Source: Octopus vulgaris (lineage: Eukaryota). Taken from it: a stretch of 64,000 bases of DNA. This document shows, piece by piece, positions 870-56,073 of this stretch. The stretch spans positions 34,658,001 through 34,722,000 of the forward strand of contig OX597837.1 of assembly GCA_951406725.2 (NCBI GenBank). Direction: 5' to 3'. A program made the position numbers and the translations under genes. Below the pieces are notes generated by a model. That model made no database searches. It was not told the DNA's origin and saw nothing but the letters and a program-made list of their open reading frames with translations. Position 1 is the stretch's first letter, and every line of letters begins with the position of its first letter.

Positions 870-1206
870 TTATTCCTCCTGGTTTCCTTGCCGATGAGAC
901 GAACCAATGGTAGATCGACTTAATTTAATTTAATTTAATTAGGCTGGTTTGCCATAAATTACGTTGAAACAATGCATTGTCCAAGGATGATTAAGGTAAA
1001 TGTTTTTGATTTTCCTGTAATTTCTGAATTACTACTATTTAGCGGTTTGAGTATGGCTGCTCTTTCTAGTGAGACGAATGGCCTACCAGGGTCATTCCTT
1101 TATATTGTTGAATTTATATATATATAGTCTGCGACTATTTTCTCTTTCTCACTGGACCGCTGGTGGCAAAAAAATTTCTATTGAATTTTTTGCTACCCTA
1201 TATTGA

Positions 1207-13532: not shown

Positions 13533-13547
13533 TGATTATATATATAG

Positions 13548-13972
13548 GGCGCAGGAGTGGCTGTGTGGTAAGTAGCTTGTCTACCAACCACATGGTACCG
13601 AGTTCAGTCCCACTGTGTGGCACCTTGGGCAAGTGTCTTCTACTATAGCCTCGGGCCGACCAAAGCCTTGTGAGTGGATTTGGTAGACGGAAACTGAAAG
13701 AAGCCCGTCGTATATATGTATATATGTATATATATATATGCGTGTGTGTGTTTGTGTGTCTGTGTTTGTCCCCCTAGCATTGCTTGACAACTGATGCTAG
13801 TGTGTTTATGTCCCCGTTAGTTAGCGGTTCGGCAAAAGAGACCGATAGAATAAGTACTGGGCTTACAAAAGAATAAGTCCCGGGGTCAAGTTGCTCGATT
13901 AAAGGCGGTGCTCCAGCATAGCCGCAGTCAAATGACTGAAACAAGTAAAAGAGTAAAAAGAGTAAAAGAGTA
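13548..13972 (+). mobile_element. tRNA-derived SINE family A, full length
   Basis: GGCGCAGGAGTGGCTGTGTGGTAAG head, internal TA/TG microsatellite, (AAAAGAGT)n tail; more than 10 copies in the window. Confidence 0.92.
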
Positions 13973-15297: not shown

Positions 15298-16141
15298 TAG
15301 GGTACGGTGAATAAACTGTTGTCTAAATTACGCAAACATGAAAATACACTGACATCTCATTTTAACAGATATATTTACCAAAATTGCACAAAAATATCTT
15401 GAAATACTAAGGAGTAAATTTATTTAATAAAATCACCATTGGCTTCAACCATGGCCTCCACACAACTTTGGGATCTTCTGGACAGTCTCCTTGCTTAAGC
15501 TGGTGAATGCAGCCATAATCCTTGTCTTCAGTTCATCTTCAGTGTTACAAAGAATTTTGTTAGTCTTTTGCTCAACTGCGCCCCACCCATAATAATCAAG
15601 GGGGTTGCAGTCTGGGGAGTTAGGTGGCCAGAGGTTAGGGGTGATGTGGTCGCAGAAATCATAACTGGGTCCTCCTACTTGTGTGACATGATGCAGAATC
15701 CTGTTGCCAGACAGAGGGTCTTCCAGCAGACACCCTGTTGATCCAGGGCAGCACTGCCTTCTCCAGGCACTTGATGTAGGCTTCCATATTAAGTCTGAGG
15801 TCATGTGGGTAAATGAATGGACACAAAATGTTGCCATCACTAGGGATCACTCCAAACACTATGATGTTGACTGGATGTTTGATTTTTATCAATCTCAGTA
15901 CATGTTCTCAGATTGCACTGTCCTCATCCAAACACTCTGAAATGTTTGTGTTGGAGCTTCCGGCATGAGTGCCAAGCATATTGTTTCCAAATTTCAGGCA
16001 GAGTGAATTGCATCATTGTGCTGTTCTTCTCACGGATGGTGCCCAACAGACCCTACTATACTATGAGCTGACAAAATCAAAAACAACGCACATGCACGAA
16101 ATTAAAACTATAAAGTTGTGATAATTTACCCATCACACCCT
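15298..16141 (-). mobile_element. Decayed, internally deleted Tc1/mariner DNA transposon (mariner/maT-like)
   Basis: Frameshifted transposase pieces IVFGVI.SDG..WQQDSASCHTS and WPPNSPDCNPLDYYGWGAVE; AGGGT(A/G)..-type degenerate terminal inverted repeats. Confidence 0.85.
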
Positions 16142-16648: not shown

Positions 16649-16853
16649 GATGCTTGGCCAAGACGTCATGCTGTGAAATTGAACCTTGGATCTCGTGATT
16701 GAGAAGCAAACTTCTAAGGCATTCAGCCATGCTGCAGTCTATTTTTAAACATACACGTGCTCTCACATCTATGAGCATGTGCGTGCACGCGCGTGTGTGT
16801 GTGTGTACCAATAGAAACACTGCTGCCACTACTACTACTACTACTATTACTAT

Positions 16854-17024
16854 GGCGCAGGAGTGGCTGTGTGGTAAGTAGCTTGCTAACCAACCACATG
16901 GTTCCGGGTTCAGTCCCACTGCGTGGCATCTTGGGCAAGTGTCTTCTACTATAGCCCTGGGCCGACCAATGCCTTGTGAATGGATTTGGTAGACGGAAAC
17001 TGAAAGAAGCCTGTCGTATATATG

Positions 17025-17057
<33 letters not shown>

Positions 17058-17269
17058 TTGTGTGTCTGTGTTTGTCCCCCTAGCATTGCTTGACAACCGA
17101 TGCTGGTGTGTTTACATCCCCGTCACTTAGCGGTTCGGCAAAAGAGACCGATAGAATAAGTACTGGGCTTATAAAGAATAAGTCCCGGGGTCGATTTGCT
17201 CGATTAAAGGTGGTGCTCCAGCATGGCCACAGTCAAATGACTGAAAACAAGTAAAAGAGTAAAAGAGTA
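16854..17269 (+). mobile_element. SINE family A, full length, inserted in (CTA)n
   Basis: Matches 13548-13972. Confidence 0.92.
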
Positions 17270-20800: not shown

Positions 20801-21280
20801 GTCTATGTATGTATGTATAAAGAAATGCACTTGGAAATAGTATTTGGTCAAATTAATGACATGTATGGTATTAATAATGTACACACAAACATAGAACAGT
20901 GCTGGTTGTATGCTTATATCTCATAAATTTCACTTCAGAGACCCCAGCGTGCTGCAAAGCACAGCATGTTCCAGATGACGTCACACAGTGCACAGTGTGT
21001 TTGTGACACACAAACCTTCTAAAGAGAAATTTCTCTGAGATATAATGCTGCACCTAGCACTGTTCTATGATGACGATGATGATAATTATCATTAATATTA
21101 ATGATCGACACGTCATTACACACCCACACATATATAAGTGTGTGTGTGTGTGTGTGAGTGAGGGGGAGAGAGAGAGAGAAAAGTGTATGCATAAATATGC
21201 AAATGAGCAAAAATCAAGGAAGTCATGGACAAAATAGGGTTTGATAACAGGATGTTCTATCTTAGAAAAATGTTAATAAA

Positions 21281-21729
21281 GGCGCAGGAGTGGCTGTGTG
21301 GTAAGTAGCTTGCTTCACAGCCACATGGTTCTGGATTCAGTCCCACTGTGTGGCACCTTGGGCAAGTGTCCTCTGCTATAGCCTCAGGCCAACCAAAGCC
21401 TTGTGAGTGGATTTGGTAGACAGAAACTGAAAGCTCTCTCTCTCTCTATATATACACACACACATATATATATATGCACACACATACACACACATGTATG
21501 TATGTATGTATTTGTGTGTCTGTTTGTCCCCCCTAGCATTGCTTGACAACCGATGCTGGTGTGTTTATGTCCCCGTTACTTAGCGTTTCGGCAAAAGAGA
21601 CCGATAGAAAATGTACTGGGCTTACAAAAGAATAAGTCCCGGGGTCGAGTTGCTCGATTAAAGGCAGTGCTCCAGCATTGCCACAGTCAACTGACTGAAA
21701 CAAGTAAAAGAGTAAAGGAGCAAAGAGTA
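21281..21729 (+). mobile_element. SINE family A, full length
   Basis: Matches 13548-13972. Confidence 0.92.
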
Positions 21730-26915: not shown

Positions 26916-27601
26916 TGAAAAAATTATATGGTTAATGGACAATATGTCCAATTTATTCAGCATATTTGGCATTAGAATTTTTTCCTTGGCCCTCATTTAT
27001 GAATTGTTTATAAATTTAACCGTTAAAGGTATTTTTTAATATGCTGGCCATTGATAAAGTTTTTTTCGAGAAAATATTTTTTTTTCAAAAAGAATTTTAT
27101 CCTCACATTTGATATAAATTTAAGCGTTCACTTCCGAACTAACTAACTCACTCTGTGAGAGCCTCAGTTCAAATCACACGTGCCTCGAATGGGCTGGAGT
27201 ATTTCTATTTTGGATGTATTTGGGGTACTTAGTTGTGCCCGTGACTTAGTATTTGCTTCTTCCATGGGTATGAGTAAGTATTTCATTATTTCTTTTGCCA
27301 CATGTATCACTGACGAAGAGAGGGCTCTTAGTAGCTAACTCTGAAATCGGTCAGATATGGTAATAATGGAATTTTTTAGAAATTTCTGTCGACCTTTTTT
27401 CGAGTAGCGTGCATATTGTGAAAAAATTATATGGTTAATGGACAATATGTCCAATTTATTCGGCATATTTGGCATTAGAAATTTTTTCCTTTGCCCTCAT
27501 TTATGAATTGTTTATAAATTTAATCGTTACAGGTATTTTTTAATATGCTGGCCATTGATAAAGTTTTTTTCGAAAAGAATTTTATCCTCACATTTGATAT
27601 A
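26916..27601 (+). mobile_element. Partial-tandem (pLTR/retrozyme-like) element in microsatellite
   Basis: Direct repeats 26916-27116 and 27419-27601 (period ~500 bp) around a hammerhead-bearing middle. Confidence 0.7.
27301..27358 (+). ncRNA. Minimal hammerhead-like motif
   Basis: GTATCA-CTGACGA-AGAG..CTCT-GAAA-TCGG-TC-AGATAT. Confidence 0.55.
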
Positions 27602-28255: not shown

Positions 28256-28845
<590 letters not shown>

Positions 28846-30584: not shown

Positions 30585-30947
30585 TTAAGTCCAACCCCAA
30601 ACAGGAAAATTTCACCACAACATGTACAAGAAGTAAAATTTCCAACAAGTCTATATTCATATAGTTGTCTAAAAGTCTATGTTAGGAAAAAAAAAAACAG
30701 CCACTCATATATTTGCCAATAAAGTGAGCATATTAATAATGCTTGTAATATCTAATATTTATGTAAATGAGTGTGTTACTGTTTGCTTTTTATAAAGTTA
30801 TATATAAAAGCAATTTAGTCTTAGCATCACACGCTGAAGAAATTACTCTATGCTTTTTAGTAAAGTACAGATTTATTAAATTGAAGACAAGCAAGCCAAA
30901 CTTTGAAGTCACTGTCAGACGTTTCTTTGTGAAATTTAATACACATA

Positions 30948-31364
30948 GGCGCAGGAGTGGCTGTGTGGCAAGTAGCTTGCTAACCAGCCACATGGTTCCG
31001 GGTTCAGTCCCACTGCATGGCACCATAGGCAAATGTCTTCTGCTATAGCCCCGGGCCGACCAATGCCTTGTGAGTAGATTTGGTAGACGGAAACTGAAAG
31101 AAGCCTGTCGTATATTTGTATATATATATATGCATGTGTGTGTATGTGTTTGTGTGTATGTGTTTGTCTCCCTAGCATTGCTTGACAACCGATGCTGGTG
31201 TGTTTACGTCCCCTTCACTTAGCGGTTCGGCAAAAGAGACCGATAGAATAAGTACTGGGCTTACAAAGAATAAGTCCTGGGGTCGATTTGCTCGACTAAA
31301 GGCGGTGCTCCAGCATGGCCGCAGTCAAATGACTGAAACAAGTAAAAGAGAGAAAGAGAGAGTA
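30948..31364 (+). mobile_element. SINE family A, full length
   Basis: Matches 13548-13972. Confidence 0.92.
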
Positions 31365-33030: not shown

Positions 33031-33451
33031 TCTGTGCCGCTGTTAAACATTTTCGATTGGCCACTCTCGTTAGTCGTCTGTTAGCTCTGCTTGATCGACG
33101 TTGGATGATTGAATATTGTCAGCAGCAATATTAACAACAATTATCGTCATCGGCATCACCATCATCAGTAATCCTCATAAATCTCCCCACCCACCTCTTC
33201 CCTCCCCCCCGTTTCTCATAAATTATCATAATCTCCGGTGTATAATCAGCACCTCGTCATTATCTCCACCACCAGCACCACAAAGAGAGTTATTCCTCAA
33301 CAGTCACCACTCTCACCTATCCCTTGCTTCTCATAAATTATCCTCATTGCCACTTTACAATCCAGCAATATCATTGTCGATTACATAACAACACTAATAA
33401 TAATGATTATTAATAATAATAATAATAATAATAATGATAATAATCTTTTCT

Positions 33452-33815
33452 ACATGGTTCCGGGTTGAGTCCCACTGCGTGGCACCTTGGGCAAGTGTCT
33501 TCTACTATAGCCTCGGGCCGACCAAAGCCTTGTGAGTGGATTTGGTAGACGGAAACTAAAAGAAGCCCGTCGTATATATGTATATATTTATATATATAAG
33601 TGTGTGTGTGTTTGTCCCCCTAGCATTGCTTGACAACTAATGCTGGTGTGTTTATGTCCCCGTTACTTAGCGGTTCGGTAAAAGAGACCGATAGAATAAG
33701 TACTGGGCTTACAAAAGAATAAGTCCCGAGGTCGAGTTGCTCGGCTAAAGGCGGTGCTCCAGCATGGCCGCAGTCAAATGACTGAAACAAGTAAAAGAGT
33801 AAAAATGTAAGAGTA
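33452..33815 (+). mobile_element. SINE family A, 5'-truncated
   Basis: Starts at ACATGGTTCCGGG. Confidence 0.9.
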
Positions 33816-39512: not shown

Positions 39513-39516
<4 letters not shown>

Positions 39517-39791
39517 CATAAGGGACTAAAGCCATCTGAATATGGCTAGGGACAGGGCAGGGTGGTGGGGGTGTTACTGTTGCATTTAGCCCCAGGCGAA
39601 CATCGACGTCGCCAGATAGGCTTGACACCATCACGGTGTCCTTTAACCTGCAAAGGGAGATAATTCCCCGATGAAGCGGCAAGCCTATCTGGCGACGTCG
39701 ATGTTCGCCTGGGGCTAAATGCAACAGTAACACCCCCACCACCCTGCCCTGTCCCTAGCCATATTCAGATGGCTTTAGTCCCTTATGTTAT
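39513..39791. repeat. Perfect 112-bp inverted repeat with 55-bp spacer (PLE-like)
   Basis: Arms 39513-39624 and 39680-39791 are exact reverse complements; the insert (to ~39835) is flanked by (TA)n. Confidence 0.95.
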
Positions 39792-47110: not shown

Positions 47111-47380
47111 ATAAGAAACTGTTTTTCAGGAAAAGGACCTAAGAAAGGAGTTATAGGGAGTTAGTGACCCAATGGGAAGGGTATAATAGGCAAAAGGGAG
47201 AGAGAGAGAGAAAGATAAGGGGGAAAAGATGACGTAAGAGAAAGTGAGAGAAGGGGTGAGAAAAGAAGAAATAAAGAGATTATAGAGAGGTGGAGAAGGT
47301 ATAGTCTTTTACTAGTTTCAGCCACTGGACAATGCCCATGCTGCAGCAGCACCATCCTTAAAGGTTTTATGGAAATTATA

Positions 47381-47609
47381 TCTCTTTACTACCCACAAGG
47401 GGCTAAACACAGAGAGGACAAACAATGACAGACAAACAGATTAAGTCGATTATATCGACCCCAGTACATAACTGGTACTTATTTAATCGACCCCGAAAGG
47501 ATAAAAGGCAAAGTCGACCTCGGCGGAATTTGAACTCAGAACGTAACGGCAGACGAAATACCGATAAGCATTTCGCCCAGCGTGCTAACGATTCTGCCAG
47601 CTCGCCGCC
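47381..47609 (-). mobile_element. SINE family B, full length, ~16-bp TSD
   Basis: TTTTATGG(A/C)AATTATA at 47365-47380 and 47610-47625. Confidence 0.9.
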
Positions 47610-47881
47610 TTTTATGGCAATTATATCACTGTGCTCCCACCCTAGTACTTATTGCAACCAGGTACTCATTTTATTGATCCCTAATTATCAAATGGCAAAT
47701 TTACCTTTTGACATGAAGGGCTACTAGTTAATATTTTACACAATTAAACACACACATGCAACAGGCTTCCTACAGTCTCCATCTACTAAATTCACTTGCA
47801 AAGCATTGGCTGGCTCATACACAGACATATACTCTTTTACTTGTTTCAGTCATTTGACTGCGGCCATGCTGGAGCACCGCC

Positions 47882-47912
<31 letters not shown>

Positions 47913-48308
47913 TATAAATACATACATATATATGTAAATATGTGTGTGTGATGATGACTGAAACAAGTAAAAGGTAAATGTGGCCATACTGGAGCACTGC
48001 TTTGAAGGACTTAGTTGGACAAATCAACCCCAGTAATTTTTCTGCTGTTTTCTTTATGCCAAACTGTTAAGTTACAGGGGTAATATATATATATACCTAT
48101 ATCATCATCATCATTATTTTAACACTTTACCATCTAAACTGGCCACATCCAATGCAAATAGCCTGTTTTATGTTCAAACTAGCCATATCCAGCATCCTGC
48201 ATTTACCCTGCAATGTCATTCCAAAAACAAACAATCACATCTTTAAAATCCCTAAGCTACAAGATAATACATGATTAATATTTTAAGCATTACATTTGAC
48301 AGAATACT

Positions 48309-48781
48309 TATTTCTTTACTACCCACAAGGGGCTAAACACAGAGGGGACAAACGAGGACAGACAAAGGGATTAAGTCAATTATATCGACCCCAGGAGGGC
48401 GGCGAGCTGGCAGAAACGTTAGCATGCCGGGCGAAATGCGTAGCCGTATTTCGTCTGCCGTTACCTTCTCAGTTCAAATTCCGCCGAGGTCGACTTTGCC
48501 TTTCATCCTTTCAGGGTCGATAAATTAAGTACCAGTTATGCACTGGGGTCGATATAATCGACATAATCCGTTTGTCTGTCCTTGTTTGTCCCCTCTGTGT
48601 TTAGCCCCTTGTGGGTAGTAAAGAAATATATATTGACCCCAGTGTGTAACTGGTACTAATTTAATTGACCCCGAAAGGATGAAAGGCAAAGTCGACCTCG
48701 GCGGAATTTGAACTCAGAACGTAGCGGTAGACAAAATACCGCTAAGAATTTCGCCCGGTGTGCTAACGTTTCTGCCAGCTA
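48309..48781 (-). mobile_element. SINE family B host copy split by nested insertion
   Basis: 48309-48394 and 48643-48781 join into one minus-strand element. Confidence 0.88.
48395..48628 (+). mobile_element. SINE family B nested antisense in family B, 14-bp TSD
   Basis: TATAT(C/T)GACCCCAG at 48381-48394 and 48629-48642. Confidence 0.9.
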
Positions 48782-49670: not shown

Positions 49671-50287
49671 GGGGGGGGGGCTTCCACACAGTTTCAGGTT
49701 CTGTCATATAAATTCATTCACAAGGCGTCGACCATTCCAGGACTACAAGTGATCATGAAATGGGATTAAAGCCAAAGCCACATGGTTTCAAAGTGAGCTT
49801 CTTGACCACACAAAACCACCCACATGTACATGTACGTGACATGCACAGTGAGAGGAGGTAGATAGATAAGTAGCACAGTTTATTAGAAATACACACACAC
49901 ACATATGTATATAGGGTAACACATATACATATGTAACACACATGTATACACACATATAGTGACATAGCTCACATACGCACACTTTGAAAGGAGATATATA
50001 GAGACATATGGCTCAATGTTCCATAGGCACACACATAAACACACACACATACATACATAGAGAAATATCTAGGGTACTAGAAGCAAACACAACACACACA
50101 CACATACACACACACTTCTGTGGTGAGTTTAGCTAAAGTGCAGATTAATCTACCTCAACTCCCAGGGAACTCACATACATACTGAGAGACACACAGACAG
50201 ACATACACAAGAGCTCATTGTACCATCGTCAGCAGTTTTCTGACATCATACTAACCCTTCTGTTACCATGTTTTGTTGAAATACACA

Positions 50288-50450
50288 GTCGCAGGAGTGG
50301 CTGTGTGGTAAGTAGCTTGTTTACCAACCAACATGGTTCCGGGTTCAGTCCCACTGCGTGGCACCTTGGGCAAGTGTCTTCTACTATAGCCTCGGGCCGA
50401 CCAATGCCTTGTGAATGGAGTTGGTAGACGGAAACTGAAAGAAGCCCATC

Positions 50451-50505
<55 letters not shown>

Positions 50506-50725
50506 TGTGTGTGTTTGTGTGTCTGTGTTTGTCCCCCTAGCATTGCTTGACAACCGATGCTGGTGTGTTTACGTCCCCGTTACTTAGTGGTTCGGCAAAA
50601 AAGACCGATAGAATAAGTACTGGGCTTACAAAAGAATAAGTCCCGGGGTCGAGTTGCTCGATTAAATGCGGTGCTCCAGCATGGCCGCAGTCAAATGACT
50701 GAAACAAGTAAAAGAGTAAAAGAGT
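50288..50725 (+). mobile_element. SINE family A, full length
   Basis: Matches 13548-13972. Confidence 0.92.
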
Positions 50726-55262: not shown

Positions 55263-55666
55263 CCACCAACCTCCCCTTTATGACCAAAAGGTGGAAGTAG
55301 GGCGATGTTACGTTGATGGTGGAGCAATCCATCTAACCTGCAGCGACAGCTGTTTGACATAGCTCTACAATGCACCAACTGTTGCATCAAGGATCGCATA
55401 AGCAACAACAGCAGCTGCAGTATGCACATCCCCACCATCACCACCACTATTACTAACATTATCATCATCATCATCATAAACAATACCTCTAGCATCACAG
55501 ATACGTACGACCAGCACCACTGATTGCAGTATCACCACGACCACCACTATCAACAATAACAAACCAACAGAGGGGTGAGGGCTCTTGTGAGGTTGATCAT
55601 CCTGTTAAATATAGCAACCAAACCTCCCTCAAATCCTAATTCACAATCTTTAAAAAATATATACAA

Positions 55667-56073
55667 GGCGCAAGAGTGGCTGTGTGGTAAGTAGCTTGCT
55701 TGCCGACCACATGGTTCCGGGTTCAGTCCCACTGTGTGGCACCTTGGGCAAGTGTCTTCTACTATAGCCTCAGTCTGACCAAAGCCTTGTGAGTGGATTT
55801 GGTAGATGGAAACTGAAAGAAACCCGTCGTATATATGTATATATAATGTGTGCGTGTATGTTTGTCTGTCTGTGTTTGTCCCCCTAGCATTGCTTTACAA
55901 CCGATGCTGGTGTGTTTACGTCCCCGTCACTTAGCGGTTCGGCAAAAGAGACCGATAGAATAAGTACTGGGCTTACAAAGAATAAGTCCCAGGGTCGAGT
56001 TGCTCGACTAAAGGCGGTGCTCTAGCATGGCCACAGTCAAATAACTGAAACAAGTAAAAGAGTAAAAGGGAGT
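55667..56073 (+). mobile_element. SINE family A, full length
   Basis: Matches 13548-13972. Confidence 0.92.

Follow-up and report, generated by a model that had tools for sequence, protein, structure and literature searches.

A type I hammerhead ribozyme motif lies near the start of the 64-kb stretch of DNA analysed here (the window), at positions 885-987 of the plus strand, with three helices arranged round the core and the structure open at helix I. Helix I consists of six Watson-Crick pairs (TCCTTG/CAAGGA) between 885-890 and 982-987, found by motif scan and by folding, with position 985 also read in related contigs; fold predictions extend it distally by pairing 878-884 (+) with 989-996 across bulges. 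The core heptamer CCGATGA (core positions 3-9; 891-897) carries a C in place of U at position 4 (C892) and passes into helix II with no additional base between A9 and position 10.1. Helix II pairs GACG (898-901) with CGTT (962-965), its first pair (10.1-11.1) being a G·U (G898·U965) where G-C is expected. There follow the GAAA of the core (G12, A13, A14 and A15.1; 966-969), a perfect 12-nt palindrome that makes up helix III (969-980) and whose pairing is seen in the folding energies, and the GTC triplet ending at C981, which by its place in the motif is C17, so that cleavage is predicted 3' of this residue. The consensus features C3, G5, A6, G8, A9, G12, A13, A14, A15.1-U16.1 and H17 are all present, leaving the missing U4 of the CUGA turn and the G·U at 10.1-11.1 as departures. 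An earlier note on this DNA had described a near-complete hammerhead composed of these parts, and the motif scan and folds locate every one of them where it had been placed, including helix I, the core with its C at position 4, and the 60-nt extension of stem II with its inner G:U-rich hairpin of about 19 bp. Its helix II likewise stands as to position, although the note did not mention that the first pair is G·U, and its 12-nt palindromic helix III is indeed a palindrome that within one molecule can form just 4 pairs closed by a 4-nt loop.

To judge how often such a site would arise by chance, we used a descriptor that allowed any base at position 4, required Watson-Crick pairing in helices I and III, and permitted a helix II of up to 120 nt. 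The site at 885-987 was its sole match in the window. Among 3,208 windows shuffled locally in 1-kb blocks with preservation of dinucleotides, none contained a match with helices I, II and III of at least 6, 4 and 4 pairs, and looser matches occurred at a rate of 0.008 per shuffled window. These results confirm that 885-987 is a real type I hammerhead motif, well above chance. Among the Rfam matches listed (150 of 182) there was no hammerhead, whether at the gathering thresholds or at loose ones; the 60-nt insert and the core change would both lower the score here. In the unpaired segments inspected we saw no clear tertiary partner for a contact between the loops of helices I and II.

The 60-nt extension of helix II (902-961, +) is made up of an internal loop and a hairpin (907-955) capped by TAATT repeats. 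The 19 positions of the hairpin stem (907-925/937-955) comprise 13 Watson-Crick pairs, 5 G·U pairs and 1 A·C, and it folds with -15.8 kcal/mol on the plus strand and -4.0 kcal/mol on the minus strand, making the extension an unusual and strand-specific feature of the motif. A-to-I editing was considered as a source of the G·U pairs. Since related contigs extend into the 3' arm of the insert (949-953, with a hand-scaled summed depth of roughly 500-2,800), it is probably common to other copies. In the Penelope rows of Fig. S3 of Cervera and De la Pena (PMC4209133) the helix II domain reaches about 25 nt at most, compared with 68 nt here. The extension is in fact longer than that of all 56 published representatives and falls beyond the usual descriptors and Rfam models, so that families of this kind may be undercounted. 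Our literature search returned no long-stem-II hammerhead variant, though small Penelope-associated variants, reportedly described by Lunse et al., may already include similar forms.

The motif belongs to a 342-bp unit of 34% GC (870-1211, +), the ends of which we placed by the TA runs on either side: a (TA)n run directly upstream (850-869), likely half of the insertion target, past which the hammerhead begins after 15 nt, and a (TA)20 run directly downstream (1212-1251). The surrounding window is AT-rich and dense in microsatellites. There is no second copy of the unit in the 64-kb window, and the locus is accordingly a single copy and not a tandem array with one hammerhead per unit. A Pfam search of 148 window ORFs, out of 167 that passed a complexity filter, gave no match, and hence no reverse transcriptase or GIY-YIG remnant in the window and no linked ORF of the two at 870-1211. 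In its size, GC content and lack of a Pfam-matching ORF the unit falls within the range of non-LTR retrozymes, as it does in its strong self-pairing on the hammerhead strand: the folding z-score of the whole unit is -4.6 for the plus strand and -1.5 for the minus strand, and none of 200 shuffles was as asymmetric. This strand specificity suggests that the strand bearing the hammerhead has been under selection for RNA structure. A further hairpin lies towards the 3' end of the unit (1162-1197, +; -15.4 kcal/mol for 1150-1205), and the loose ends of related contigs carry other versions of both its arms, possibly compensatory. At 993-1001 (+), 14 nt past the predicted cut, the sequence AAG/GTAAAT looks like a 5' splice site; introns are known from Penelope terminal repeats.

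Parts of the unit are present in public runs of four organisms from nine studies. We compared contigs from four of these runs at 80% likeness and obtained coverage from three of them for 949-1205, a span that starts inside the 3' arm of the insert, downstream of position 892. In the runs of three organisms 634, 281 and 456 contigs match this span, and over half of them (355, 194 and 309, respectively) are less than 95% alike to it; because hundreds of divergent contigs match, 949-1205 is a multi-copy repeat. At 12 of the 257 sites the copy at 870-1211 departs from the related majority in every one of the three runs, with the majority letter above 90% at 5 of the 12, and its divergence from its relatives amounts to 2-5% of sites. 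At position 985 it has G, where 60-92% of the related depth has A. For 949-984, which includes the GAAA, no other letters are listed among the related contigs, although identity is not thereby proven; this constancy fits a conserved GAAA and palindrome and proves little, since at this divergence 19 nt in a row would stay unchanged with a probability of 40-69%. Two junctions were observed, each in one contig, the one attaching a piece of 1047-1069, in inverted orientation, to 1156, the other returning from the 3' end of the unit to about 1000. Both resemble the inverted or partial-tandem arrangements of Penelope-like clades (10.1101/2021.04.23.441226). Compared with the hammerhead, parts of the unit downstream of 1014 have about 10-fold the summed depth; this depth is not a copy number and dips mid-unit as well. 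In run X1, guessed to be RNA and unstranded, the 870-1211 copy appears almost letter for letter, and one contig spans 981/982; 23 of 29 sampled words are present, with likelihoods of 0.18 for C and 0.10 for T at 892, values too close to tell the two apart. Pattern scans for the motif in metagenomes, genomes and viral contigs found nothing, and of the 15 viral and 4 prokaryotic matches to GAAA followed by the palindrome, none was preceded by a hammerhead-like part.

The window holds several other repeats and motif remnants. At 27305-27362 (+) there is a degenerate minimal Penelope-type hammerhead with a CTGACGA core and an extra A, a short helix II, GAAA, a near-minimal helix III and an imperfect helix I. 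Two more CTGANGA cores, each with an A and then a small GAGC hairpin behind it, occur at 28315-28340 (+) and 15250-15225 (-); their GAAA or GUC portion has decayed, and they are likely further Penelope-type remnants. A fragment on the minus strand at 15448-15846 resembles DDE_3 transposases of the Tc1/mariner type (6 matches in a protein search, 2 of them with PF13358). At least seven copies of a dispersed SINE-like repeat of about 430 bp (families D19 and D20) were found, at 13533-13958, 16839-17264, 21266-21717, 30933-31356, 33395-33804, 50274-50721 and 55652-56068. A pair of 233-bp inverted arms, 92% complementary and 788 bp apart, spans 47377-48630, and further copies of these arms lie at about 20240, 34550 and 53800. 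A perfect 112-bp inverted repeat with a 55-nt spacer (39513-39791) may be a foldback element of recent origin or an inverted retroelement junction, or may have arisen in assembly, and a 154-base poly(A) run past a long (TA)n run (28691-28844) is possibly an assembly artefact.

Folding of the motif depends strongly on the number of copies present. As a monomer, 885-987 with C892 adopts the hammerhead fold with a probability of 0.0005, i.e. in about 0.05% of molecules, and with more flanking sequence the value is about 0.00002-0.0006. In the predicted misfold, 892-896 of the core is instead base-paired to 975-979 of the palindrome, and C4 strengthens this pairing, as restoring U892 raises the probability of the active fold to 0.004. 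The palindrome by itself costs +0.8 kcal/mol as a 4-bp hairpin with a 4-nt loop and gains -15.1 kcal/mol as a 12-bp duplex of two copies, and these energies make it a helix III of the kind that permits dimers. When two copies are mimicked in tethered form, the hammerhead becomes the minimum-energy fold, with a probability of about 0.19 for C4 and 0.18 for U4; the models used for these estimates omit the tertiary contacts that stabilise real hammerheads. A monomer misfold that is relieved by a second copy would constitute a simple switch, and bears on how elements of this kind avoid re-cutting their unit-length RNA.

The C at position 4 requires separate consideration. The earlier note had pointed to a second CCGATGA at 39668 and taken it as a sign that C4 may be a real variant. 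The heptamer is indeed there, as one of six copies on both strands of the window where shuffles expect 2.5, but it sits in the 55-nt spacer of the perfect 112-bp inverted repeat and lacks a GAAA within the ~100 nt that follow. We therefore rejected 39668 as a second C4 hammerhead, and with no hammerhead around it the heptamer gives no support for C4. In published work, a U4C hammerhead variant from a viroid showed considerably lower activity in vitro while infectivity was retained (Perreault et al., PMC3088659), and the CUGA-turn mutants described by Roberts et al. (PMC9901934) were low in activity, the 3-8 swap excepted, and apart from that swap were not rescued by second changes. U4 is present in every one of the 56 representatives shown in Fig. 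S3 of PMC4209133, a count that is biased in so far as the search descriptor favours U4. At the divergence of the 870-1211 copy, one or more of 11 core bases would be changed with a probability of 19-41%, and a distance of 2-5% of sites from its relatives makes private decay plausible. The intact C887-G985 pair, opposed to A985 in most relatives, implies that some of the differences may be subfamily traits and not decay. CpG decay was dismissed as the origin of C4, given that a T to C change creates a CpG here; it could explain U11.1 only. On balance an origin of C4 by decay is favoured over a family-wide state, and the change would be private to the 870-1211 copy or to its subfamily.

Taken together, we think it reasonably probable that 885-987 is a type I motif at the 5' end of a lone 342-bp unit that derives from a Penelope-like terminal repeat, of the kind seen in non-LTR retrozymes, and that it is now a weakened remnant, predicted to adopt its active fold only as a dimer. 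A Penelope-like origin is indicated by the (TA)n runs on both sides together with the described bias for such targets, by the junctions and by the palindromic helix III. In a parent that was tandem or had terminal repeats at both ends, two palindromes (969-980) would pair as a 12-bp intermolecular helix III, which would free each core and allow the RNA to be cut after C981, with the 60-nt hairpin stacking outward from helix II and being tolerated there. Cleavage would release a unit-length RNA, kept from renewed cutting by the monomer misfold, and the proteins of the Penelope-like parent could then reverse-transcribe this RNA and insert it, here into (TA)n. What would remain is a lone copy in (TA)n with C4 and a G·U at 10.1-11.1, its core strand trapped on its own palindrome. 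Both the parent family and the cleavage as a dimer are what we infer from these features, and several observations sit uneasily with them: neither a reverse transcriptase nor a GIY-YIG remnant turned up in the 148 scanned ORFs, there is no tandem arrangement at the locus, minimal Penelope hammerheads typically carry one more base after A9 than is present here, the intact C887-G985 pair against the A985 of most relatives hints at a distinct subfamily, and each of the two junctions is supported by one contig. Because it has no partner in cis and departs twice from the consensus, the 870-1211 copy would probably be a weak or silent ribozyme rather than an active new one. It is the most complete motif in the window, and the earlier note had named it the best candidate for an active ribozyme; its activity is nevertheless doubtful in view of the predicted misfold, the lack of a second copy and C4.

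Other readings of the same data deserve weighing against this one. C4 could be the normal state of the repeat family or subfamily, with the dimer and the long helix II offsetting a weakened U-turn. In keeping with this, helix I and the other core positions are intact, the insert, whose fold forms on the plus strand alone, is probably not unique (related contigs entering its 3' arm), C4 carries no folding cost in the two-copy mimic (0.19 versus 0.18), and a U4C hammerhead was active enough in vivo for viroid infectivity (PMC3088659). We nonetheless hold it to be unlikely, as U4 is found in 56 of 56 published representatives (PMC4209133), the CUGA-turn mutants reported in PMC9901934 are weak and unrescued save for the 3-8 swap, background divergence can account for one core change, and the site at 39668 lends nothing. 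A still bolder form, to which we give slightly less credence again, has the family common to several related species with a working dimer-type CCGA-turn hammerhead, in which the 60-nt extension compensates for C4 or regulates the switch between monomer and dimer. Were it true, a eukaryotic genome would hold a natural C4 core throughout a whole family, and peripheral structure would be able to relax a nearly fixed core base.

About as improbable as a family-wide C4 is that the unit never was an independent short circular retrozyme and represents the 3' terminal fragment of a 5'-truncated autonomous Penelope-like element. Such truncated elements retain just the 3' hammerhead (PMC4209133 supplement), and the insertion within (TA)n, the inverted and partial-tandem junctions and the ~10-fold higher summed depth downstream of 1014 would all suit this origin; against it stand the canonical 6-bp helix I and 4-bp helix II with no extra base after A9, the strong self-pairing of the whole unit and the lack of an ORF remnant upstream (Pfam, 148 ORFs), and the depth itself, not being a copy number, dips mid-unit too. 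That the motif is instead a cis-acting monomeric ribozyme retained by the host and active in a host transcript appears very improbable. Its helix III exceeds that of most animal repeat hammerheads in length and its helix I may reach 13 pairs by fold prediction, but the monomer is predicted to misfold, the two consensus departures (C4 and the G·U at 10.1-11.1) weigh against it, and no host gene was identified in the 64-kb window (Pfam, 148 ORFs). Chance assembly of short motifs within repeat-rich DNA we regard as scarcely credible: although Rfam gave no match among those listed and the active fold is not the minimum-energy fold of the monomer, no shuffle of the 3,208 was as good, the perfect palindrome falls exactly at helix III and the folding is strand-specific.

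For the preferred reading, a remnant of a Penelope-like terminal repeat, known systems provide a close frame. Animal repeats contain many well-described hammerheads, with 235 type I matches in a squid genome for example (PMC6962438), so that one further copy matters little. Non-LTR retrozymes carry canonical type I motifs in self-paired units of 170-400 nt with low GC content (<45%; PMC7229834); according to a 2026 preprint they derive from Penelope terminal repeats, occur as dispersed solo copies, and cleaved in one of nine dimers tested (10.64898/2026.07.22.740005). Like those of metazoans, the octopus unit combines a type I motif, a 6-bp helix I, a 4-bp helix II and a palindromic helix III with a length of about 340 bp, GC under 45%, self-pairing and a multi-copy nature, and solo copies like it have been described. 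Unlike them it is non-tandem and has C4, a G·U at 10.1-11.1 and a 60-nt extension in place of loop 2, and while the retrozymes are expressed as circular RNA, 870-1211 is known here from DNA and contigs alone. The viroid U4C variant cited in PMC3088659 has the identical core change; there the change occurs in an RNA that replicates under selection, whereas C892 belongs to one genomic copy of a predicted motif. Penelope terminal repeats contain dimer-type hammerheads with a palindromic helix III (PMC4209133, PMC6765202), and a preference for (TA)n has been described for some Penelope-like clades, as have insertions in inverted or partial-tandem form (10.1101/2021.04.23.441226). The octopus copy shares with the former the dimer-type palindromic helix III and the dispersed single copies (PMC4209133), its 12-nt palindrome comparing with 10 nt in the Aedes and Saccoglossus rows of that work, several rows of which also have a G·U at 10.1-11.1. 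It differs from them in having C4, found in 0 of 56 rows, in having no reverse transcriptase or GIY-YIG ORF nearby, an ORF often missing from truncated copies, and in lacking the extra base after A9 of typical minimal Penelope hammerheads, which is likewise missing in 2 of the 56 rows (PMC4209133). The element thus would work like the motifs of Penelope elements and retrozymes, while its strict membership in either is doubtful, being non-tandem, without an ORF and without the extra base.
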